The notes beneath the pieces are model-generated. The model was not told where the DNA came from. It saw nothing but the letters and a program-made list of their open reading frames with translations, and ran no database searches. A program made the position numbers and the translations under genes. This document shows positions 2,644 to 31,174 of a stretch of 64,000 bases of DNA, piece by piece; position 1 is the stretch's first letter; every line of letters begins with the position of its first letter. This DNA comes from Escherichia coli O127:H6 str. E2348/69. Lineage in GTDB: Bacteria > Pseudomonadota > Gammaproteobacteria > Enterobacterales > Enterobacteriaceae. The DNA is taken from assembly GCF_000026545.1 (NCBI RefSeq), contig NC_011601.1; one strand, written 5' to 3'.

Positions 2644-3786
2644 TCAAATCTGCTTTTCATACAATCGGTAACGCTTGTACGGCTCCGCCCCAATGCGTTC
2701 CAGCATGTTATTCATGCCTGTATTGGTTTCGAGGATCCATGACATTTCCAGCGCATCGATCTTCCGACGGGCAAACGGATCGCGTAAGGCTTCAATCAAT
2801 AACAGCGCAATTACCGGGCCGATGCGGCTGAACTGATACTCGTCCCGCACGCCCATCAGCGGTACTCGCGCAGTTCGCACACCGCTGACTTTCAAACGCC
2901 ACAGCAATTTTGCCCAGCCGAAGGGAAAGAGCGATCCGTTCAGATCGGCAATCGCCTCGTTGATGTTCGGCAAGCCGACAATAAACGCGCAGGGTGCAGA
3001 ATCAATCTCAGCGATGTAGATCATATCGTCCGGCACCAGATATTTAAGTTGATCGCCCATGGTCGCGAATTCATGTTCGGTAAACGGCACAAATCCCCAG
3101 TTGTGCTGCCAGCCAGAATTGAAAATCTCACGCAGGATCTGCATCTCTTCGGCAAACCGCTGGCGATTGATGCAGCGAATGGTCACCTTTTTGCGCACCT
3201 GATCCATCAGTTTTTTTAGCGCCGGAGAGAAAGTGAGATCGGTTCGCTGCATCCACCACGCCAGTAAATCAATGCCTTTGTGATAACCCAGTTGTTCAAT
3301 ATGCGCGGCATACCACGGTTTGCCGTGTGGCATCATCGCACAGGGCGGAGTGTCAAAACCTTCAATCAGTAATCCGCTTTCCTGATTGATATTCAGGCTG
3401 AAAGGCCCGCTGATCTTACTTGCACCTTGTGACTTTAACCACGCTTCCGCTGTACCAAACAACGCGGCAAAAACCTGCGGATCATCAATGGCGTCAATCA
3501 TGCCGAAATGACCGGTATCTTCACCGTAACGCTCACGGTGCAAGGTATCTATTTGCGCGGTAATACGCCCAACTATCTGCCCCGCTTTTTTTGCCACCCA
3601 CGCCTGCCAGATGATATGGTCCGTCCCCGGATTCTTCGCAGACAAATGCTCGTTGCGTTCAATGAATAAAGGGGGTATCCAGTTTGGATCGTCGGGATAA
3701 AGTGATGACGGAAAAGCGATAAATGCCTTAAGGTCATTTTTATTAATTACTTTTTCAATTTTAATCATCAGCAGATCGCATTCCAT
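2644..3786 (-). CDS. yghO: YghO, full-length 380-aa form; candidate N-acyltransferase (remembered as a pseudogene in K-12)
   Basis: 380-aa intact ORF beginning MECDLLMIKIEKVINKNDLKAF...; divergent from the adjacent biosynthetic operon. Function inferred from context only; exact start (1st or 2nd Met) uncertain. Confidence 0.75.
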   Translation of the reverse strand: MECDLLMIKIEKVINKNDLKAFIAFPSSLYPDDPNWIPPLFIERNEHLSAKNPGTDHIIWQAWVAKKAGQIVGRITAQIDTLHRERYGEDTGHFGMIDAIDDPQVFAALFGTAEAWLKSQGASKISGPFSLNINQESGLLIEGFDTPPCAMMPHGKPWYAAHIEQLGYHKGIDLLAWWMQRTDLTFSPALKKLMDQVRKKVTIRCINRQRFAEEMQILREIFNSGWQHNWGFVPFTEHEFATMGDQLKYLVPDDMIYIAEIDSAPCAFIVGLPNINEAIADLNGSLFPFGWAKLLWRLKVSGVRTARVPLMGVRDEYQFSRIGPVIALLLIEALRDPFARRKIDALEMSWILETNTGMNNMLERIGAEPYKRYRLYEKQI

Positions 3787-4138
3787 AGTTCTGTGGGTAA
3801 CAAATAATTAACGGTGACAAACAGGTTGCAACAGCAACGAACGGCACCTTAACAATCAACCCAATGAATACAAACGACGAATAAATAGTATTATTAATGA
3901 TTACGATAAGGTCAGAGACTACACAGAAGCGCCTCAATGCCTTTTGTCGATTTAAGGCGACCGGACAAGGCTTCTTCTTAATATATTCATAAATTAAATA
4001 TCATTCACAAAAAAACTCAAACTCATTATTTAAATCAATGTTCATTTTCACACTGATGAAAATACTATCTCATTTATCTTTTATGCCTATATAATCCACC
4101 GCATTATTGTCATTTTATTTTGGATATCCAATTTTTTC
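3787..4138. promoter_or_regulatory. Divergent promoter region between yghO and the FAAL-reductase-ACP-AOS operon
   Basis: 352-bp strongly AT-rich intergenic region with several TATAAT-like hexamers separating divergent genes; no specific operator identified. Confidence 0.4.
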
Positions 4139-5872
4139 GTGGTGTATATGTCTAATAAAATCTTTACGCATTCCCTACCTATGCGCTATGCCGATTTTCC
4201 AACGCTGGTTGATGCTTTGGACTACGCCGCTCTGAGTAGCGCCGGAATGAATTTTTATGACAGACGTTGCCAACTTGAAGATCAACTGGAATATCAGACG
4301 TTAAAAGCGCGTGCCGAAGCTGGTGCGAAGCGGTTGTTATCGCTGAACCTGAAAAAAGGCGATCGCGTGGCGCTGATTGCCGAAACCAGTAGCGGGTTCG
4401 TAGAGGCTTTTTTTTCCTGCCAGTATGCCGGCTTAGTCGCCGTCCCGTTGGCGATTCCAATGGGCGTCGGTCAGCGGGATTCCTGGAGCGCCAAACTGCA
4501 GGGTTTACTGGCAAGTTGCCAGCCCGCAGCCATTATCACTGGTGATGAGTGGTTGCCACTGGTCAATGCCGCGACGCATAACAACAACCCCGAATTACAT
4601 GTTTTAAGCCACGCCTGGTTTAAGGCATTACCGGAAGCCGATGTTGCGCTCCAGCGTCCAGTTCCAAACGATATCGCCTACCTCCAGTACACCTCCGGCA
4701 GCACCCGTTTTCCCCGTGGCGTCATTATCACCCATCACGAAGTGATGGCTAATCTACGTGCTATAAGCCACGATGGCATTAAATTACGCCCTGGCGACCG
4801 CTGCGTCTCCTGGCTGCCTTTCTACCATGATATGGGACTGGTCGGCTTTCTCCTGACCCCCGTCGCCACGCAGCTTTCAGTAGATTATTTGCGCACTCAG
4901 GATTTTGCCATGCGTCCTCTGCAATGGCTTAAATTGATCAGTAAAAATCGCGGCACCGTTTCCGTTGCACCGCCGTTTGGCTATGAATTGTGCCAGCGCC
5001 GCGTGAATGAAAAAGATCTCGCTGAACTGGATCTTTCCTGCTGGCGCGTCGCTGGTATTGGAGCAGAACCGATCTCCGCAGAACAACTCCATCAATTCGC
5101 TGAATGTTTTCGTCAGGTTAACTTTGACGATAAAACTTTCATGCCGTGCTACGGACTGGCAGAAAATGCGCTGGCTGTCAGCTTCTCTGATGAAGCCTGC
5201 GGGGTTGTGGTTAACGAAGTGGATCGCGACATCCTCGAATACCAGGGTAAAGCCGTCGCGCCGGGTGCTGAAACACGCGCCGTATCGACTTTCGTCAACT
5301 GCGGTAAAGCGTTGCCGGAACATGGCATTGAAATCCGCAATGAAGCAGATATACCTGTCGCGGAACGTGTGGTAGGCCATATTTGCATCTCCGGCCCCAG
5401 CCTGATGAGCGGGTACTTTGGCGACCAGGTTTCGCAAGACGAGATTGCCGCGACGGGCTGGTTAGACACCGGCGACCTTGGTTATCTGCTGGACGGTTAT
5501 CTGTATGTCACCGGACGCATTAAAGATCTGATTATTATTCGTGGCCGTAATATCTGGCCGCAGGATATTGAATACATTGCGGAACAGGAACCGGAAATTC
5601 ATTCTGGCGATGCGATTGCTTTTGTTACCGCCCAGGAAAAAATCATTTTGCAGATCCAGTGTCGGATCAGCGACGAAGAACGTCGCGGGCAGCTTATCCA
5701 CGCGCTGGCAGCTCGGATCCAAAGCGAATTTGGCGTTACCGCGGATATCGATCTGTTGCCGCCCCACAGTATTCCCCGAACATCCTCCGGCAAGCCTGCC
5801 CGTGCGGAAGCGAAAAAACGTTATCAGAAGGCTTATGCTGCCAGTCTTCATGTGCAGGAATCCCTGGCATGA
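4139..5872 (+). CDS. AMP-dependent synthetase/ligase; fatty acyl-AMP ligase or acyl-ACP synthetase-like
   Basis: 577-aa ORF with adenylate-forming core motif YTSGSTRFPRGVIITH and downstream GYLYVTGRIKDLIIIRG motif typical of the ANL superfamily; stop overlaps next gene start (ATGA). Confidence 0.85.
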   Translation: MVYMSNKIFTHSLPMRYADFPTLVDALDYAALSSAGMNFYDRRCQLEDQLEYQTLKARAEAGAKRLLSLNLKKGDRVALIAETSSGFVEAFFSCQYAGLVAVPLAIPMGVGQRDSWSAKLQGLLASCQPAAIITGDEWLPLVNAATHNNNPELHVLSHAWFKALPEADVALQRPVPNDIAYLQYTSGSTRFPRGVIITHHEVMANLRAISHDGIKLRPGDRCVSWLPFYHDMGLVGFLLTPVATQLSVDYLRTQDFAMRPLQWLKLISKNRGTVSVAPPFGYELCQRRVNEKDLAELDLSCWRVAGIGAEPISAEQLHQFAECFRQVNFDDKTFMPCYGLAENALAVSFSDEACGVVVNEVDRDILEYQGKAVAPGAETRAVSTFVNCGKALPEHGIEIRNEADIPVAERVVGHICISGPSLMSGYFGDQVSQDEIAATGWLDTGDLGYLLDGYLYVTGRIKDLIIIRGRNIWPQDIEYIAEQEPEIHSGDAIAFVTAQEKIILQIQCRISDEERRGQLIHALAARIQSEFGVTADIDLLPPHSIPRTSSGKPARAEAKKRYQKAYAASLHVQESLA

Positions 5873-6783
5873 ATCAAACTGTCGCGGTGACGGGCGCTAC
5901 CGGGTTTATCGGTAAATATATTATTGATAACCTGCTCGCCCGCGGCTTTCACGTTCGCGCATTAACGCGTACTGCCCGCGCTCACGTCAATGATAATCTC
6001 ATCTGGGTGCGCGGTTCGCTGGAAGATACACATTCGCTTAGCGAACTGGTTGCCGGAGCCAGCGCGGTGGTCCATTGCGCCGGACAAGTGCGCGGACACA
6101 AAGAAGAGATTTTTACCCGCTGTAACGTTGACGGCAGCCTGCGCCTGATGCAAGCGGCAAAAGAGAGCGGCTTTTGCCAACGTTTTCTGTTTATCTCTTC
6201 GCTGGCGGCGCGCCATCCCGAACTCTCCTGGTACGCAAATTCCAAACACGTCGCCGAACAACGACTGATCGCAATGGCTGACGAAATTACGCTGGGCATT
6301 TTTCGCCCGACAGCCGTGTATGGTCCCGGCGATAAAGAGTTAAAACCGCTGTTTGACTGGATGCTGCGCGGCCTGCTGCCACGACTTGGTGCGCCAGATA
6401 CACAACTCTCTTTCCTGCACGTCACCGATTTTGCGCAAGCAGTGGGTCAGTGGTTAAACGCCGAAACTGTACAGACGCAAACCTATGAATTATGCGATGG
6501 CGTCGCTGGCGGCTATGACTGGCAACGCGTACGACAGCTTGCCGCCGAAGCCCGTTGTGGTTCTGTGCGGATGGTTGGCATTCCTCTGCCGCTACTCACC
6601 TGCCTTGCGGATATCAGTACTGCGTTGAGTCGCCTGGCAGGTAAAGAACCTATGCTGACCCGCTCGAAAATTCGTGAATTAACCCACGCCGACTGGTCGG
6701 CAAATAATAACCGTATTTCTGAAGATATTAATTGGTTTCCCGGGATTAGCCTGGAACACGCATTACGCAACGGGCTATTTTGA
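5869..6783 (+). CDS. NAD(P)-dependent epimerase/dehydratase-family oxidoreductase (extended SDR); candidate 3-keto reductase
   Basis: Start chosen at ATG 5869 (MNQTVAVTGATGFIGKYIIDNL...), giving an N-terminal Rossmann GxxGxxG motif; the longer ORF from 5659 would overlap the upstream gene by 200 bp and is rejected. Confidence 0.8.
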   Translation: MNQTVAVTGATGFIGKYIIDNLLARGFHVRALTRTARAHVNDNLIWVRGSLEDTHSLSELVAGASAVVHCAGQVRGHKEEIFTRCNVDGSLRLMQAAKESGFCQRFLFISSLAARHPELSWYANSKHVAEQRLIAMADEITLGIFRPTAVYGPGDKELKPLFDWMLRGLLPRLGAPDTQLSFLHVTDFAQAVGQWLNAETVQTQTYELCDGVAGGYDWQRVRQLAAEARCGSVRMVGIPLPLLTCLADISTALSRLAGKEPMLTRSKIRELTHADWSANNNRISEDINWFPGISLEHALRNGLF

Positions 6784-6814
6784 TTGTCTTGTTTAAAGGT
6801 GTGTTAACGTTTCT

Positions 6815-7063
6815 ATGGTAAATCGTGAAATAGTAATGGATTACATCCTTTCCTGTTTACAGGATTTGGTCGAAAACGGTGTGGAAATTAAGCCCGACAG
6901 CGATCTCGTCAACGATCTTGGCCTGGAGTCGATCAAAGTGATGGATCTCTTAATGATGCTGGAAGACAGATTCGATATTTCCATTCCTATTAATATTCTG
7001 CTGGATGTCAAAACCCCTGCGCAATTAATGGAAACTCTACTTCCATGGCTGGAGAATAAATAA
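6815..7063 (+). CDS. Acyl carrier protein (phosphopantetheine-binding)
   Basis: 82-aa acidic ORF with ACP-like motif DLGLESIKVMDLLMMLEDRF (conserved Ser attachment site); AAAGG ribosome-binding site upstream; stop overlaps next start (TAATG). Confidence 0.8.
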   Translation: MVNREIVMDYILSCLQDLVENGVEIKPDSDLVNDLGLESIKVMDLLMMLEDRFDISIPINILLDVKTPAQLMETLLPWLENK

Positions 7064-8235
7064 TGGGGCTATACGATAAATATGCGCGCCTTGCTGGCGA
7101 GCGCCTGCAATTTAGTGATAACGGGTTAACACCATTTGGCACCTGTATTGATGAAGTATATTCCGCCACCGAAGGCCGGATCGGCAATAAAAAAGTGATT
7201 CTGGCCGGGACCAATAATTATCTCGGTTTAACCTTTAATCATGATGCTATCCGCGAAGGTCAGGCAGCGTTAGCGGCCCAAGGCACTGGCACCACCGGTT
7301 CTCGTATGGCAAACGGCAGTTATGCGCCGCATCTGGCGTTAGAGAAAGAGATTGCCGAGTTTTTCAATCGCCCTACCGCTATCGTTTTTTCAACCGGTTA
7401 TACAGCTAATTTAGGCGTCATCAGCGCACTTGCCGACCATAACGCCGTGGTGTTACTGGATGCCGACAGCCACGCCAGTATTTATGACGCCTGTTCTCTC
7501 GGCGGCGCAGAGATTATTCGTTTCCGCCATAATGACGTCAACGATCTGGAACGGCGCATGGTCCGCCTCGGTGAACGGGCGAAAGAGGCGATTATTATCG
7601 TTGAAGGCATCTACAGTATGCTCGGTGACGTTGCGCCGCTGGCAGAAATTGTTGATATCAAACGTCGTCTCGGTGGTTATTTGATTGTCGATGAAGCACA
7701 TTCGTTTGGCGTGTTAGGCGTAACAGGCCGCGGACTGGTTGAAGCCGTTGGCGTTGAAGACGACGTGGATATTATCGTCGGCACCTTCAGTAAAAGTTTG
7801 GCTTCCATTGGTGGTTTTGCCGTGGGTTCAGAAGCGATGGAAGTGCTGCGCTACGGCAGCCGCCCGTATATTTTTACCGCCTCTCCTTCTCCGTCCTGCA
7901 TTGCGACCGTGCGCTCGTCGTTAAGAACCATTGCCACACAACCAGAGTTGCGGCAAAAACTGATGGATAACGCCAACCATCTGTATGACGGTCTGCAAAA
8001 ACTGGGTTACGAGTTAAGTTCACATATTAGCCCGGTAGTGCCAGTAATAATCGGTTCGAAAGAGGAAGGTTTACGCATCTGGCGCGAGCTTATTTCGCTG
8101 GGCGTTTATGTGAATCTTATCCTGCCACCTGCCGCGCCTGCAGGCATCACGCTGCTGCGCTGTAGCGTAAACGCTGCCCACAGTCGTGAGCAAATCGATG
8201 CCATCATTCAGGCATTTGCTACTCTGAAGCAGTAA
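7063..8235 (+). CDS. PLP-dependent alpha-oxoamine synthase (serine palmitoyltransferase / 8-amino-7-oxononanoate synthase family)
   Basis: 390-aa ORF with class-II aminotransferase features: HSFG motif and PLP-lysine motif GTFSKSLASIGGF. A paralogue of BioF/Kbl, but co-operonic with an ACP and an acyl-AMP ligase. Confidence 0.85.
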   Translation: MGLYDKYARLAGERLQFSDNGLTPFGTCIDEVYSATEGRIGNKKVILAGTNNYLGLTFNHDAIREGQAALAAQGTGTTGSRMANGSYAPHLALEKEIAEFFNRPTAIVFSTGYTANLGVISALADHNAVVLLDADSHASIYDACSLGGAEIIRFRHNDVNDLERRMVRLGERAKEAIIIVEGIYSMLGDVAPLAEIVDIKRRLGGYLIVDEAHSFGVLGVTGRGLVEAVGVEDDVDIIVGTFSKSLASIGGFAVGSEAMEVLRYGSRPYIFTASPSPSCIATVRSSLRTIATQPELRQKLMDNANHLYDGLQKLGYELSSHISPVVPVIIGSKEEGLRIWRELISLGVYVNLILPPAAPAGITLLRCSVNAAHSREQIDAIIQAFATLKQ

Positions 8236-8241
8236 TGTGAA

Positions 8242-8272
8242 CCCGCCGTGGTGTTGCGCCACGGCGGGTTTA
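8242..8272. terminator. Bidirectional intrinsic terminator between convergent operons
   Basis: Perfect inverted repeat CCCGCCGTGG-(7 nt)-CCACGGCGGG followed by TTTA, between the plus-strand AOS gene and the minus-strand LptG-like gene. Confidence 0.7.
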
Positions 8273-9349
8273 ATGTTGTCTGTCATGCCAATACACCAGG
8301 CTCAACGCCACCAGCACAAACGCTACCGGTAAACCGAGCGCGGTAACAGGTGCGCTCAACGCAAATAGCAATCCCAGATTGACCATGATTTGATAGCTGA
8401 TCCAGGTGAGTAAACCAACGATGACCCCTACAGCGAGACGGCTACCCATCCTAGGCGAGCGCGGGGCACTAAAGGTAAACGGCACAGCCAGCAAAATCAT
8501 CGCCAGAGTCAAGATGGGTTGCCCCAGTTTTTCCCACAGTGCAAGGCGGTATTCGCTGCTGGGTTGCCCGGTTTCCTGCAAATAATGGATGTAATGATTA
8601 AGCTGACGGACAGAAAAAGTATTTCCCGGCATCGATAACTCTTCAAGATTCATACTGGTGAAGGTCGATTGCCAGGCAAGATAATCAGATGTTTCCTGCG
8701 TTTCTTTGCCATTCAGCCATTTTTTATGATTCACACCATGCAGGATCCACGTTTTGTCATCTTCAATGGTGGCACTGCGCGCATAAATGTAGGATTCGAG
8801 CGAGAGATCATCGCGGTAATGAAATATCTCCACGTCCACCGGCTGGCCCTGCTCGTTCAGCGATTTCACCGTCACAAATTCATTACCACGCCTGGCCCAC
8901 AGCATATTGCCGGTAATGTCATCGTCCTCCCCCAACGCAGTGGCAGTCGATTTGATTTGCAGCGCCTGTTGCTGCAATGGCGACGCCACCCACTCATCTA
9001 TCGCGCCTAATGAAACAGTCCACAATATCCCGGCAACCAGCGCCACCAGTGCAATACGGAAGATAGAAAACCCCGTGCTGCGAATGGCGGTAAGCTCACT
9101 GTTTTTCGATAACTGCCCCAGGCCGACAATCCCTCCCAATAAGGCGATAAACGGCGAAAGTTCGACCAGTGTGCGCGGTAAGGTCATCAGCACCACCAGC
9201 ACCGCCTGAGTCCAGCGATAACCACCCGGGCTGACATCATCCAGTTCGTTAATCAGGTTGAAGGTGGTAAAAAGCGGCAGCAATAGCCCTGCGGCGGCGG
9301 CAAAACCGAGAAAGAGATGACGGATTAAATAGCGACTGAAAACATTCAT
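8270..9349 (-). CDS. LptG-like permease (YjgP/YjgQ family)
   Basis: Multi-pass membrane protein; start placed at Met of MNVFSRYLIRHLFLGF..., which overlaps the upstream gene stop (ATGA). Resembles LptF/LptG N-termini and topology, with a central periplasmic domain. Confidence 0.75.
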   Translation of the reverse strand: MNVFSRYLIRHLFLGFAAAAGLLLPLFTTFNLINELDDVSPGGYRWTQAVLVVLMTLPRTLVELSPFIALLGGIVGLGQLSKNSELTAIRSTGFSIFRIALVALVAGILWTVSLGAIDEWVASPLQQQALQIKSTATALGEDDDITGNMLWARRGNEFVTVKSLNEQGQPVDVEIFHYRDDLSLESYIYARSATIEDDKTWILHGVNHKKWLNGKETQETSDYLAWQSTFTSMNLEELSMPGNTFSVRQLNHYIHYLQETGQPSSEYRLALWEKLGQPILTLAMILLAVPFTFSAPRSPRMGSRLAVGVIVGLLTWISYQIMVNLGLLFALSAPVTALGLPVAFVLVALSLVYWHDRQH

Positions 9350-10416
9350 CGGGAAAATTTCTGCAGCAAAGAGAAGTCGCGTGCGACCAACATCAGCAGG
9401 CCCATTAGCATGAGTCCGGGTACTAACCACAAACCAGGAATGAGGGGAATCGCGCCGTTAGCCACCAGCGTACGGCAGACGTCGCCGCCATAAAAAATGG
9501 CAACAAACAGCAACGTCAGTGGCAATAACGTTGAAAATCGCCCTTGCCGCGGTTTTACCCGACTTAATGAAATGGCCAGCAGCGCCATCAACAATGCTGT
9601 CAGGCCACGGCTTTGTCGCCATTGCAGTTCGGCATGATCGGCAGGAAAGGCGGAGCGCGCCAGCTCCGTGACCGATTTTGCTTTGCGTTTGACGTTAGGG
9701 CTTTGATCCAGCGGATTCAGATGTAATTGCAGATTACGGTAGATCTGTTCGTTGTCGTCACGCCCCTGATGATCGAGAAGATAGGCGGTCCCGTTATGCA
9801 ACATAACGGTCGGTTTCTCAGGTGATGGGTCAACCACATCAACCGAACGGGCGCGGAAAATGCGGGTTCGATTAGCAGTAGAAGTATAAATCAGCGCGTC
9901 AGTCAGGCGATTATTATCCTGATCAACCGTCTGCGAAAGGATCATTCGTCCGTTATCGTTAGTGTTAAATTGCTTTGCCCGCAACTGGCGAACATCCAGC
10001 TCCGACTGTGACTGTTGCTCCAGTTGATAAATCTGCGCATAAGCCCACGGACGACCATACATCGACAGAAGGGTGACAAAAATACTTAGCGGTATCGCCA
10101 GATAAAGAACGGCTTTGTACAAGCGTCCCGGACTGCCCCCCGCCGCAGAGATAGCGGTAATTTCCGAGTCGGTATACATCTGCCCTAGCGTCACGCCAAC
10201 TGACACATACAGTCCAACAGGTAACAACATCTCCAGTGCAATCAGCACTTTGTAGAAAACGATATCCAGCACAACATCAAGAGCTAATGTCCCATTTGCC
10301 GCTTCGGTCAGATAACGCTGTGCGGAGTAGCTGGCGAAAATAAAGATCAGAAAACCGACGATAATCAGCACCAGACGGCGCGTACCACGCATGATGTAGT
10401 GTTCAACCAGCTTCAT
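9346..10416 (-). CDS. LptF-like permease (YjgP/YjgQ family)
   Basis: 356-aa ORF MKLVEHYIMRGTRRLVLIIVGFLIF...; hydrophobic N- and C-terminal segments with a central soluble domain, as in LptF/LptG; translationally coupled to the downstream permease. Confidence 0.75.
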   Translation of the reverse strand: MKLVEHYIMRGTRRLVLIIVGFLIFIFASYSAQRYLTEAANGTLALDVVLDIVFYKVLIALEMLLPVGLYVSVGVTLGQMYTDSEITAISAAGGSPGRLYKAVLYLAIPLSIFVTLLSMYGRPWAYAQIYQLEQQSQSELDVRQLRAKQFNTNDNGRMILSQTVDQDNNRLTDALIYTSTANRTRIFRARSVDVVDPSPEKPTVMLHNGTAYLLDHQGRDDNEQIYRNLQLHLNPLDQSPNVKRKAKSVTELARSAFPADHAELQWRQSRGLTALLMALLAISLSRVKPRQGRFSTLLPLTLLFVAIFYGGDVCRTLVANGAIPLIPGLWLVPGLMLMGLLMLVARDFSLLQKFSR

Positions 10417-10445
10417 CTCACTAACGCCCTCAATCCTTTGAATTT

Positions 10446-11009
10446 TTATTCATTGATCAGCTTCTGCGCCAGCGCAATGACATGATCTACCTCTTCCGGC
10501 GTCAGGCTGCCGTCCTTTGCCCACTGAATTTGCCCGGTTTTATTCAGCACCAGAATGGTTGAACTCTGCTCCTGCAAGTGCCAGGCAACGCGTCCCTGTC
10601 CATTGCCGTCAATAACGAATTGCGCCCATGGATAGCGGCGTTTATTTTTTTCGATTTTGCCAACGACAAAATAGCCGGTACCAAAGATGGCATCATCAGT
10701 GTTCACAATGGTGGTGGGCTGAAAACGATCCTGCGGAAAGTTTGCCGCTTCAACTGCTTTAATTAACAGTGAGTTCTTTTTCTTCGCCGACTTACGCCCG
10801 GCGATATACTGAATAATGCGAACTTTTCCTGCCAATTGGGTGCTGTTCCACTTTTGGTAGTGAATTTCGTCGTCGCTATTCCGAAGCAGCTCGCCGCCTT
10901 CCTGGATATAAACGGGGGTAACCGTTTTGCCAGTGACGAAATTGTGTGCCTGCACACCCGGGGCTAAGAGCATGATAATCAGCGCAATAATCAAACGAGA
11001 TGACATCAT
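10446..11009 (-). CDS. Secreted periplasmic protein, YtfJ-like
   Basis: 187-aa ORF with N-terminal signal peptide (MMSSRLIIALIIMLLAPGVQA); family assignment is from memory of YtfJ-type proteins, not a search. Confidence 0.5.
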   Translation of the reverse strand: MMSSRLIIALIIMLLAPGVQAHNFVTGKTVTPVYIQEGGELLRNSDDEIHYQKWNSTQLAGKVRIIQYIAGRKSAKKKNSLLIKAVEAANFPQDRFQPTTIVNTDDAIFGTGYFVVGKIEKNKRRYPWAQFVIDGNGQGRVAWHLQEQSSTILVLNKTGQIQWAKDGSLTPEEVDHVIALAQKLINE

Positions 11010-11017
11010 TGCTCCGG

Positions 11018-11842
11018 TTATAGCGGAAAACGCGAAATCAGCAGTTCTAAGCGCTGGCGAATATCGCTATCCAGCGCCATCGGTGCATCATACGACTGGC
11101 GGTTTTCCATATCATCCGCCACCATGTCGTCGTGTTTATCCCCCATCAGGCCATTAATGGCGGCGAGGAAGCGGGAAATCTGTAACGCCTCTTTATTTTC
11201 AGGATCAAGCGATCTTAAGGTGTCGTAATAAGAAACCTGCTGGCTGATGATTTTTCGCACATCATGAAATTCCCTGCCAGTTAGTTGCGGTTTAGCAATA
11301 ATCTCTTTCAGGATGTACATTTGCTTCTGGCGGTAGGCGATAAAACCGTTCACGGTTTCTAACTGGCTATGGCGCAATGAATAGTTCACCAGCCACCAGA
11401 CAGGGGAGCTCAAATAAACACGTAACAGGTTACCGTAAAACGACACAATATTTTTCTTACCGTTACGAAAGCCATCCTGAAAATGCCCAAGAAAAACGGT
11501 CGTTTTGCCGAATAAAAATCCAGCCTGATGCTTCTTTAAATACAGCCGTTGCGCAAAACGCAGATGCTTGTAGCGCGCTCGCATGTATTTAAACTGTTTG
11601 CGCTCGTCTGTCGTCAGCTCATCGCCTTTCGCCTGTTTGCGGATTAAACGCAGTAACTCCTGACGATTAACACCATCCAGCCAGAATTTCAGGCATAACG
11701 CGTAATTATCATGGATGATTTCGGTGGTACAACTTAGTGCGATAGTCGGCGGCAAACTGACCTGTGCATCAACAACATCATCTTCTTCAATCGCAACAAA
11801 TAGACGCTCGCTCGCCTCAAGCGGGAAATATTTTCTCATCAT
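11018..11842 (-). CDS. Hypothetical basic protein, operon member of unknown function
   Basis: 274-aa ORF with no signal peptide or obvious transmembrane segments; start overlaps the yghQ stop by 1 nt; no recognisable catalytic motif. Confidence 0.6.
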   Translation of the reverse strand: MMRKYFPLEASERLFVAIEEDDVVDAQVSLPPTIALSCTTEIIHDNYALCLKFWLDGVNRQELLRLIRKQAKGDELTTDERKQFKYMRARYKHLRFAQRLYLKKHQAGFLFGKTTVFLGHFQDGFRNGKKNIVSFYGNLLRVYLSSPVWWLVNYSLRHSQLETVNGFIAYRQKQMYILKEIIAKPQLTGREFHDVRKIISQQVSYYDTLRSLDPENKEALQISRFLAAINGLMGDKHDDMVADDMENRQSYDAPMALDSDIRQRLELLISRFPL

Positions 11843-13191
11843 CAGGATTTCTCTCCGGTTGAGTTATAAAGCAAGGAATGGCGCTGAAAAAATGCCTTTA
11901 AGGTCGGAATTAGCGAGAGCACCACATCCAGACATTGCCCACCGAAGTAAGCAAATGCAGCCCCCAGCACGCCAAACAGATGACAGAACATGAACAGCAA
12001 TACGATGTAGCCGATTGAGGCGATGGTTTGCGCCACGAGAAAAGCGCGCTGTTTTCCCGCCATCAATAGCAATGACTCCTGTGGGAAGCCCAGCATCGAA
12101 ATCACAATTGCGCCCAGCATCACCTGAATCAGGTCATACGCTTCGAGATACTTAACGCCAAACACCAGCGAAATGAGCGGCTTGCCGACGATCAACACCG
12201 CGAGCGCCACCAGAATACCGATTCCGCCCGCCAGTAAACCGGACTTCACGCCTAACAACCACGGTCTGGTGGTGCGTGGATCTAAACGCATCACCTCTGG
12301 ATAAAAACTTTTGCCCAGTAAACCCGCTGGCGTTCCGGCGGCATCGAAGAATGTCATGGCGATTTTAAATAACCCGACAGCAGCGGGTCCTAACACGATC
12401 CCCACCAACACTGTGCTGCACGAGTTACGCGCCGACCAGATGGAGTGGGCAATGTTGGTTGACCAGACAAAACTCCACGCGCCTTTAATGTGTCGGGCAG
12501 ACTCAAACAGATTCAATTTGAAGGCGTTATGGATATTTCTGCGGCGTAATTCGCGCGCGGCAAACCACCAGTACATGGTGCCGCCAACCAGATTCGACAC
12601 GTACCAGGCAATAACAAAACCCGCAAAACCAAAGTCAAAATACCAGGCTACGACGCTCCCCGCTGCGCGCAGAAAAGGTTTCGTCGCCTGCTGTACAGCA
12701 ATCAAATCAAAGCGATCTACCGCACGCAGAATGCCGGTCGGCGTGGAGGAAGCCATTGAAGGAATGAGCGTGCAATAGAGCGCCGCCAGCCAAAAGCTTT
12801 GGTCATCCAGACCTAATGAATGGGAAAGGAATGGCAGTAAGGCAATGCCGCCGACAATCGCCACCGCGCCGCTGACGATATCCAGCGAGAAGGAAAATGA
12901 GACAACATTGCGAAATTGCTGCGGATTATTGTTGGTCAAGGCCGGCGTTCCGTACTGGACCACCAGTTGCCATGTCTGAAACTTAATAAAATCGCTGATC
13001 GATTTGGCGTACGATTGCACAATTACCAGTACGCCAAACATGGCGGGCGTCATCCCTTTACCGGCACACGAGAGCGCCAACAGCCCCAGCAAAGCGCTCA
13101 CAACATTACTGGAGCCTAACCAGGCGCTATTGCGAATAATGGTGCGAAACGCGCCATCTGCAAACCAATGTTTGATGTTTAAACCCGCCAA
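11842..13191 (-). CDS. yghQ: Polysaccharide/lipid flippase-like inner membrane protein (MOP superfamily), full-length YghQ
   Basis: 449-aa polytopic membrane ORF; the K-12 YghQ is remembered as shorter (N-terminally truncated), and this copy appears to be the intact form. Confidence 0.8.
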   Translation of the reverse strand: MAGLNIKHWFADGAFRTIIRNSAWLGSSNVVSALLGLLALSCAGKGMTPAMFGVLVIVQSYAKSISDFIKFQTWQLVVQYGTPALTNNNPQQFRNVVSFSFSLDIVSGAVAIVGGIALLPFLSHSLGLDDQSFWLAALYCTLIPSMASSTPTGILRAVDRFDLIAVQQATKPFLRAAGSVVAWYFDFGFAGFVIAWYVSNLVGGTMYWWFAARELRRRNIHNAFKLNLFESARHIKGAWSFVWSTNIAHSIWSARNSCSTVLVGIVLGPAAVGLFKIAMTFFDAAGTPAGLLGKSFYPEVMRLDPRTTRPWLLGVKSGLLAGGIGILVALAVLIVGKPLISLVFGVKYLEAYDLIQVMLGAIVISMLGFPQESLLLMAGKQRAFLVAQTIASIGYIVLLFMFCHLFGVLGAAFAYFGGQCLDVVLSLIPTLKAFFQRHSLLYNSTGEKS

Positions 13192-17155: not shown

Positions 17156-17445
17156 ATATTAGATTACGCCATTTTGAATTTACGAACGGAGGCATTATCA
17201 GTGACTTTCACGGCGTGGGCAAAGTGAAATATCATTTTTTAACGATAAAAAGCGTGTTATTTCTTGTGTATCAGACAATAAGCCTTCATTCAAAGCTTTT
17301 AGAAATAATTAATACACTGAAATTTCGTTAGTTGATATATTCATGTACAGAATACATATATAATAAATATATAAGAATTAAATGCTTTGATTAATCCCCG
17401 TACTGATTATTCATCATAATCAGTACGGAGTTGCTACAACATGTA

Positions 17446-29061: not shown

Positions 29062-29555
29062 ATGAAACATTCATTTGAAGTAAAACTTGCCGCTGTAAAT
29101 CATTACCTGGCTGGTCATGCAGGCATCATTTCTACGGCAAAACTCTTTCAACTTTCTCACACCAGCCTCTCACACTGGATTAATCTTTTTCTTCTTCACG
29201 GTCCTCGGGCACTGGATTGCAGACACAAGCGTAGCTATTCTCCTGAAGATAAACTTTGCGTGGTTCTTTATGCTCTCGGGCATTCTGAGTCTCTACCCCG
29301 GGTAGCTGCCCGGTTTAACATTCCCAGCCACAACACGGTTAAAAACTGGATAAAAGGCTACCGCAAATCTGGTAATGAGGCCTTTATCAGGCGCAGGAAG
29401 GAGAAAAGCATGACCCGTTCTGATGATACCCATGAAAACGAGGCAAACATGACGCCGGAAGAGATGAAGAATGAGCTGCGTTATCTTCGCGCAGAAAATG
29501 CATATCTGAAAGCCATGCAGGAGCATCTCCTGGAAAAAAAGCGCCAGGAGCTGGA

Positions 29556-29583
<28 letters not shown>
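29062..29583 (+). CDS. insJ: IS150 transposase OrfA (InsJ, HTH DNA-binding)
   Basis: 173-aa ORF MKHSFEVKLAAVNHYLAGHAGIISTAKLF... recognised as IS150 InsJ; leucine-zipper-like C-terminal region. Confidence 0.9.
29535..29541 (+). other. Programmed -1 ribosomal frameshift slippery heptamer (A_AAA_AAG)
   Basis: A AAA AAG lies in the OrfA frame just before its stop, and the downstream OrfB is in the -1 frame; the classic IS3-family arrangement yielding an OrfAB fusion transposase. Confidence 0.7.

Positions 29584-31174
<1,591 letters not shown>

Follow-up and report, generated by a model that had tools for sequence, protein, structure and literature searches.

The closest described counterpart of the genes considered here is the ceramide cluster of Caulobacter crescentus (CC_1162-1165 plus CC_1154), which, like the related rhodobacterial spt loci, brings the same five functions, spt, acpR, aasR, epi/cerR and aca/bCerS, together in a cluster (PMC9386255). 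The same study identified YghO as the homologue of CC_1154, the ceramide N-acyltransferase of Caulobacter (aca/bCerS), and named ECD_02850-02854 of Escherichia coli BL21(DE3) as the counterparts yghO/aca, aasR, epi, acpR and spt. Upon overexpression, AcpR bears 4'-phosphopantetheine and AasR acylates AcpR, with Spt favouring acyl-AcpR (PMC9386255). No 3-oxo-sphinganine was obtained from BL21 empty-vector extracts, and the authors considered that the native BL21 epi and yghO products may process this compound further (PMC9386255); if these products are indeed active, then yghO and the operon are not fully silent.

The closest parallels for the control of these genes are the SH-NS class (Kahramanoglou et al. 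2011) and the conserved H-NS-bound intergenic regions (Higashi et al. 2016), which share with the spacer between yghO and aasR an AT-rich upstream tract of a few hundred base pairs and flanking genes of normal GC content. These short H-NS-bound regions lie upstream of operons made up of poorly expressed non-core genes and display the same faster-than-coding divergence. The yghO-aasR spacer, a candidate for such occupancy, differs from them in having the H-NS motif at chance level and depleted TpA steps, and in that its promoter-proximal 92 bp are unusually conserved rather than diversified. Classical H-NS-silenced acquired loci such as bgl, proU and the LEE of EPEC likewise combine an AT-rich regulatory region with genes that are apparently silent in the laboratory. 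In those loci, however, either the gene bodies are AT-rich or silencer elements extend to both sides, and hns mutants show derepression, whereas the yghO-aasR genes have 50-54% GC and are at most putative targets of such silencing. Overall, the spacer is a genuine but ordinary AT-rich control region, comparable to many short tracts found upstream of E. coli operons, some of which are bound by H-NS.

Our analysis covered a window of 64,000 nucleotides from E. coli E2348/69, to whose coordinates all positions below refer; the spacer is 100% identical to that of the chromosome record NZ_CP059840.2 of this EPEC strain. According to the RefSeq annotation, yghO (2644-3786, minus strand) and a four-gene unit on the plus strand point away from a shared spacer. 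The unit consists of aasR, encoding a fatty acyl-AMP ligase or specialised acyl-ACP synthetase (4148-5872), an epi/cerR-like reductase gene of the NAD-dependent epimerase/dehydratase family (5869-6783), the acyl carrier protein gene acpR (6815-7063) and the serine palmitoyltransferase gene spt (7063-8235), an order matching that of ECD_02851-02854 in BL21. Profile searches supported these assignments, with Spt scoring 597 bits against a cut-off of 500 for the NCBIfam Spt equivalog, AasR scoring 867 bits against a cut-off of 600 for the fatty acyl-AMP ligase model, and the epi and acpR products carrying the Epimerase and PP-binding Pfam domains, respectively; YghO had no match at 1e-5 in either Pfam or NCBIfam. 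The flanking genes are thus the published E. coli ceramide (sphingolipid) synthesis cluster. What had not been described before is its control region, and the arrangement departs from that of the Caulobacter cluster in that the acyltransferase gene yghO stands directly opposite the operon, across a single shared spacer.

The exact extent of this spacer depends on where translation of aasR begins. As the RefSeq start is the ATG at 4148, the spacer spans 3787-4147 and measures 361 bp. The length of 352 bp given in the initial annotation, which placed its end at 4138, applies if the GTG at 4139 is used instead. That start is defensible since the position occupied by GTGGTGTATATG in E. coli reads ATGGTGTATATG in Citrobacter amalonaticus, Hafnia and Pseudocitrobacter. 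More generally, the start of aasR is ambiguous: GTG 4139, GTG 4142, ATG 4148 and ATG 4181 are all in frame, a good Shine-Dalgarno sequence was found at none of these candidates, and RefSeq places the start at 4148 in some strains but, in others, at the ATG equivalent to 4181, which lies 33-36 bp downstream. In other genera aasR has an in-frame ATG 3-5 codons upstream.

The spacer stands out by its base composition. It has 32.7% GC, or 67.3% AT (32.4% GC for 3787-4138), compared to 42.3% GC in the non-coding and 51.4% GC in the coding parts of the window and 50.6% GC (49.4% AT) in the window as a whole, which bears out the original observation that it is markedly richer in AT than its surroundings. 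It is also the longest of the 40 intergenic regions in the window and has the sixth lowest GC content among them. A windowed calculation found only 0.4% of 352-bp windows to be equally AT-rich and ranked the spacer as the second most AT-rich stretch of the window, the gss-pitB spacer (17156-17445, 30% GC) being the single one above it. A second AT-rich patch, at 6600-7100 (39-44% GC), covers acpR and its upstream junction, acpR itself having 40.6% GC.

The TATAAT-like hexamers and A/T tracts to which attention had originally been drawn are present, though only in the numbers that the composition predicts. Ten such hexamers occur, including a single perfect copy, where composition-matched shuffles give 9.1 +/- 3.3. 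A/T tracts of 4 nt or longer number eight (6.0 +/- 2.2 in shuffles), and TpA steps are depleted (33 against 40.9 expected). Because these counts match the base composition, the hexamers add nothing, and the real observation is the combination of AT-richness and length. Such a result is what one would expect if the spacer were a generic one, its AT content due to mutation bias acting on weakly constrained non-coding DNA and its promoters intrinsically weak and activator-dependent, with nucleoid proteins playing no role at all. The similar GC content of other intergenic regions in the window (30-38%) is in line with this explanation; that this spacer is the longest of them and lies in the low tail of the GC distribution is harder to reconcile with it. 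We return to this explanation below.

Conservation divides the spacer into clearly different parts. In an alignment of 10 Escherichia sequences, including cryptic clades, mean pairwise identity was 88% for positions 3787-3869, 81-82%, with indels, for positions 3870-4055, and 98.6% for the 92-bp block at 4056-4147. For comparison, the flanking genes showed 86-88% identity at third codon positions and 97-98% at first and second positions taken together. The 92-bp block, on the plus strand, is therefore as conserved as non-synonymous sites and under strong purifying selection, and we propose that it comprises the core promoter and 5' leader of aasR. The AT-rich middle (3870-4055), on the other hand, evolves at or above the synonymous rate and is a candidate nucleation tract for H-NS.

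The same difference was seen across complete E. coli genomes. In 4144 of 4145 genomes the 92-bp block reached an identity of 98.9% or more (that is, the 95-99% identity band or above), and a 186-bp coding control was typically 97.8% identical, while the 186 bp of the middle were 90-95% identical in 3617 of 3646 genomes and escaped megablast in about 500 genomes that carry the 92-bp block. Part of this deficit stems from the query itself, as 9 bp (ATAAAAACA) present in other E. coli are missing from E2348/69 between positions 4009 and 4010, in an A-rich tract. This deletion is nearly private, only six of the 3646 genomes matching the middle of the E2348/69 spacer at 95% identity or more, and it brings the upstream sequences nearly one helical turn closer to the core promoter of aasR.

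The best-scoring promoter candidate of the spacer under our heuristic matrix falls within the invariant block. A perfect -10 hexamer, TATAAT (4090-4095, plus strand), itself invariant in the alignment, is predicted for aasR and is preceded, 17 bp upstream, by a weak -35 candidate, ATCTCA (4067-4072, plus strand), which matches the consensus at 3/6 positions; the predicted transcription start lies at about 4102, leaving a leader of about 46 nt. A consensus -10 paired with a poor -35 is typically seen in promoters whose firing depends on an activator or a defined signal. With its perfect -10 and a -35 of only 3/6, the aasR promoter should fire poorly when left alone, and help from an activator or from some specific signal is probably required. 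Candidates in the direction of yghO (minus strand) were weak, as were all -35 candidates. The best of the former is a sigma-70-like candidate at 3980-4008, with a -35 of GTGAAT (4008-4003), a -10 of TATATT (3985-3980) and a start at about 3973. A consensus scan of the spacer showed no enrichment of full -35/-10 promoter-like sites (1 against 2.6 expected in shuffles).

Other signals in the spacer are few. The alignments contain a small conserved palindrome or hairpin, GTTGCTGTTGCAAC (3825-3838, minus strand), made up of GTTGCAAC plus AGCAAC and located 39-52 bp upstream of the yghO start codon. We scanned the spacer for 19 consensus sites from the literature, among them those of H-NS, Fur, CRP, FNR, IHF, PhoB, ArcA, Lrp, PhoP, PmrA, OmpR, sigma-54, FadR, FabR, RcsB, CpxR, Fis and LexA, and nothing was significant after correction. 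The lowest uncorrected value (p = 0.012) belonged to an ArcA-consensus-like 15-mer, GTTAATTATTTGTTA (3798-3812, minus strand, 13/15), which we treat as a lead only. A sigma-54 promoter at GGCAC (around 3843) was dismissed, its spacing being a misfit by eye and the scan giving 9/11 (p = 0.06), and repeats in the spacer were short and at chance level. A literature search returned no transcription start site, ChIP or reporter data for the yghO-aasR spacer; the CRP ChIP-seq table of ETEC H10407 does not list yghO, glcC, glcD, pitB or yghQ, and H10407 may itself lack the locus.

A different way to account for both the length of the spacer and its conserved block would be a small RNA, a cis-regulatory RNA or a small peptide gene hidden in it. 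Frame scanning revealed a 12-codon open frame, MKILSHLSFMPI followed by a stop codon (4056-4094, plus strand), which begins exactly at the first base of the invariant block, and the block is conserved at every position. Yet this frame has no Shine-Dalgarno sequence, and the very invariance of the block leaves no variation for codon-wise or covariation tests. Rfam had no match in 3000-5000 even at E <= 1, nor in 12 related loci at gathering score, and neither of the two predicted 5' leaders gave a fold more stable than those of shuffled sequences (z = -0.75 and +0.15). Nor did we find a conserved open frame in the longer spacers present in other genera: their small ORFs, which we considered and rejected, shared no consistent frame, start or stop. 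All in all, we regard a hidden RNA or peptide gene as very improbable.

The distribution of the spacer shows that it belongs to a long-standing but often lost locus. It occurs once per genome, at this locus, in 4160 of 5426 complete E. coli genomes. K-12 MG1655 is among those without it: homology to K-12 ends at 3746, after 40 bp of yghO, and picks up again within yghQ at 12123, the gap being filled by an IS5 element (insH9). IS5 has thus replaced an 8.4-kb segment (3747-12122) that runs from the 5' end of yghO through the 5' part of yghQ and also spans aasR-epi-acpR-spt, the lptG/lptF-like genes, a YtfJ-family gene and a hypothetical gene, and the 'yghO' and 'yghQ' of K-12 are therefore truncated remnants. 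In strain FORC_082, an IS1 element lies about 100 bp from yghO and a larger deletion reaches gss. Elsewhere in the E2348/69 window, the IS3-family element IS1397 (29062-30410) interrupts gpr, the gene for L-glyceraldehyde 3-phosphate reductase, leaving two pseudogene fragments.

The genes downstream of spt and convergent with it (8270-13191, minus strand) code for paralogues of LptG and LptF, the LPS-export permeases. Next come genes for a YtfJ-family protein, for a hypothetical protein and for YghQ, here full-length and carrying the annotation 'lipopolysaccharide biosynthesis protein'. Judging by these annotations, they could plausibly serve to export or modify the lipid that the operon makes.

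Beyond E. coli, the divergent layout of yghO and aasR-epi-acpR-spt, with a spacer of 270-1095 bp, was found in about 40 species of Enterobacterales and Pseudomonas. These include cryptic lineages of Escherichia, E. whittamii, Citrobacter, Pseudocitrobacter, Shimwellia, Pluralibacter, Serratia, Erwinia, Pantoea, Tatumella, Rosenbergiella, Hafnia, Cedecea, Sodalis, Klebsiella indica, Pseudomonas and Stutzerimonas. Throughout these species the spacer falls below the flanking genes in GC content, the difference being 6-26 points for Enterobacterales and about 6-15 points for loci of the Pseudomonas group, and outside Escherichia the spacer cannot be aligned save for 30-80 bp adjoining the aasR start. 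Length and AT-richness are hence kept while the sequence turns over, which suggests that composition or length is itself selected. Taken together, the diverging units, the layout kept across genera and the purifying selection on the 92 bp next to aasR support the initial description of the spacer as a divergent control region.

The spacers of other genera (L015-L053) hold a conserved non-coding module of their own. Read towards aasR, it starts with TTTTACCACT(T/A)AATGC, is followed about 30 nt later by the -35/-10-like arrangement TTCACT-16 nt-CATACT, and then by GTGTTTAAGTT. We found the 14-mer TTACCACTWAATGC as an exact match, a single time in each of 16 loci from six named genera and two unclassified MAGs (e.g., L020:3675-3688, L016:3885-3898 and L030:3698-3711). 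For the 15 of these with both genes mapped, its place is within the spacer, at a distance of 173-737 bp upstream of aasR; the E. coli window does not contain it. The module is not an ORF and had no Rfam match, and it is a candidate operator and promoter for some regulator. We considered whether GTTCATTTTCAC...AATACT (4040-4066) in E. coli could be a relic of the TTCACT-16-CATACT arrangement but do not claim this, as its spacing is 2 bp short and the similarity is weak. Two further loci deserve mention. Shimwellia pseudoproteus (L039) carries, on a second contig, another yghO paralogue (73% identity) with no adjacent aasR operon, and a low-coverage contig of 430 bp attributed to 'Macrococcus' sp. 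(L054) holds a YghO fragment 99% identical to that of E. coli, probably as a result of assembly contamination.

These data bear directly on the explanation offered by the initial annotation, namely that the locus is an accessory island, that H-NS/StpA coats its spacer, and that this xenogeneic silencing is the main cause of its products going unseen in the laboratory. Several observations are in keeping with it: the spacer is 67% AT over 361 bp and its middle evolves fast, the locus is missing from 23% of complete E. coli genomes including K-12, IS elements are found at the locus, and neighbouring AT-rich spacers adjoin H-NS-bound units. The term 'island', however, does not fit. The segment lost in K-12 has 50.0% GC, the same as the window (50.6%), with individual genes ranging from 41% (acpR) to 54%, so that an AT-rich acquired gene content was not found. 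As the layout is moreover conserved across many genera, the locus is old, often lost and of normal composition, and not a recently imported AT-rich island. The invariant promoter block also implies regular functional use, and both the nucleation motif, which is not above chance, and the depletion of TpA steps count against silencing of this kind. We thus consider this explanation unlikely. The normal GC content of the segment and its wide conservation weaken the rationale for xenogeneic silencing, although the spacer itself could still bind H-NS.

Whether it does so can be approached from its neighbourhood. Most H-NS maps come from K-12 and cannot cover the spacer because K-12 lacks its sequence, and our literature search returned no paper linking yghO or the spacer to H-NS and no H-NS ChIP-seq of E2348/69. 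Higashi et al. (2016) performed H-NS ChAP-seq on strains SE11, SE15 and K-12 in LB at mid-log phase (PMC4720273), and SE15 has the full locus, with a 370-bp spacer (NC_013654.1:3,073,016-3,073,385, between ECSF_RS14970 and ECSF_RS14975) of 30.5% GC that matches that of E2348/69 in 339 of 370 aligned columns. The tables of that study list only genes present in >90% of strains; yghO and aasR fall outside this set and hence do not appear. The same tables nevertheless offer a local calibration. In them gss counts as bound by H-NS, and so does the region upstream of the hybOABCDEFG unit (PMC4720273), and these two units adjoin the other long AT-rich spacers of the window, gss-pitB (30% GC) and yghW-hybO (37% GC). 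By contrast, yghU, yqhA, yghA, exbD, metC, yghB, yqhC, yqhD, dkgA, yqhH, plsC, parC and ygiV are scored as unbound (PMC4720273), and the spacers adjoining such genes have, where measured, at least 41% GC.

Further indirect evidence comes from rates of evolution and from insertion sequences. Upstream intergenic regions bound by H-NS are reported to evolve more rapidly than those that are not (PMC4720273), in keeping with the fast middle of the spacer. IS5 has been reported to favour AT-rich, H-NS-bound DNA, which fits the IS5 event in K-12 and the IS1 event in FORC_082. On the other hand, sites resembling TCGATAAATT, the H-NS high-affinity consensus, were not above chance in the spacer (best match 8/10, p = 0.62), and an extended H-NS filament is unlikely given that the tract is only about 360 bp long and is flanked by genes of 50-54% GC. 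H-NS silencing of the spacer is plausible, and so, given the bound units beside neighbouring AT-rich spacers, is H-NS binding; we judge the chances that H-NS occupies it to be evenly balanced, and consider it unlikely that H-NS is the main reason for the silence of the genes.

The same evidence allows us to weigh the generic spacer introduced above, in which nucleoid proteins would have no role. Apart from hexamers and A/T tracts at chance level, this explanation is favoured by weak -35 elements, by left and middle parts that evolve at roughly the synonymous rate, and by the fact that H-NS is bound in a regulatory position at only about 23% of K-12 operons, even if short H-NS regions concentrate upstream of operons. 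What it does not readily accommodate is that long AT-rich spacers have been kept in about 40 species despite complete sequence turnover, and that the local calibration favours H-NS binding at the GC level of this spacer. We therefore regard a generic spacer as a possible explanation but a somewhat doubtful one.

The reading we favour, with a probability of roughly 55%, is that the spacer is a shared, two-part divergent control region with weak, signal-dependent promoters, probably reinforced by H-NS. One part would be the 92 bp adjoining aasR (4056-4147), acting as a strongly constrained core promoter and leader. The other would be the remaining 270 bp or so, AT-rich and evolving at or above the neutral rate, which may hold one or more weak yghO promoters and would be the kind of short AT-rich upstream tract that is often occupied by H-NS. 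Low expression in the laboratory would then most likely result from weak promoters awaiting their signal, probably with reinforcement by H-NS on the AT-rich tract; the BL21 empty-vector extracts without 3-oxo-sphinganine fit such low native expression. Composition, gene arrangement, conservation pattern and flanking-gene identity are as observed here, and we infer the promoter positions, the activator dependence and the H-NS occupancy. A bolder version would have the 92-bp block, possibly together with the frame MKILSHLSFMPI, and the H-NS tract form a signal-responsive switch that keeps ceramide synthesis off in the laboratory and turns it on in a specific host or envelope-stress condition. 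We consider such a switch improbable on present evidence, but if it were true, most E. coli strains would be conditional sphingolipid producers.

These considerations matter for how the lipid repertoire of E. coli is viewed. Sphingolipids are thought to be rare in Proteobacteria and are unreported from E. coli, and yet 77% of complete genomes carry the cluster. According to a 2023 review, bacterial sphingolipids have for the most part been detected only in Bacteroidota and some Alphaproteobacteria, which is consistent with the remark in the initial annotation that the products of the locus have not been observed under laboratory conditions. The enzymes of the cluster work when overexpressed. 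The search for the native inducing condition now has several handles, namely a conserved core promoter block beside a fast-evolving AT-rich tract, the H-NS data from SE15, and the knowledge that K-12 is unusable for this purpose. The value of the spacer thus lies in pointing to an experiment on when E. coli makes sphingolipids.
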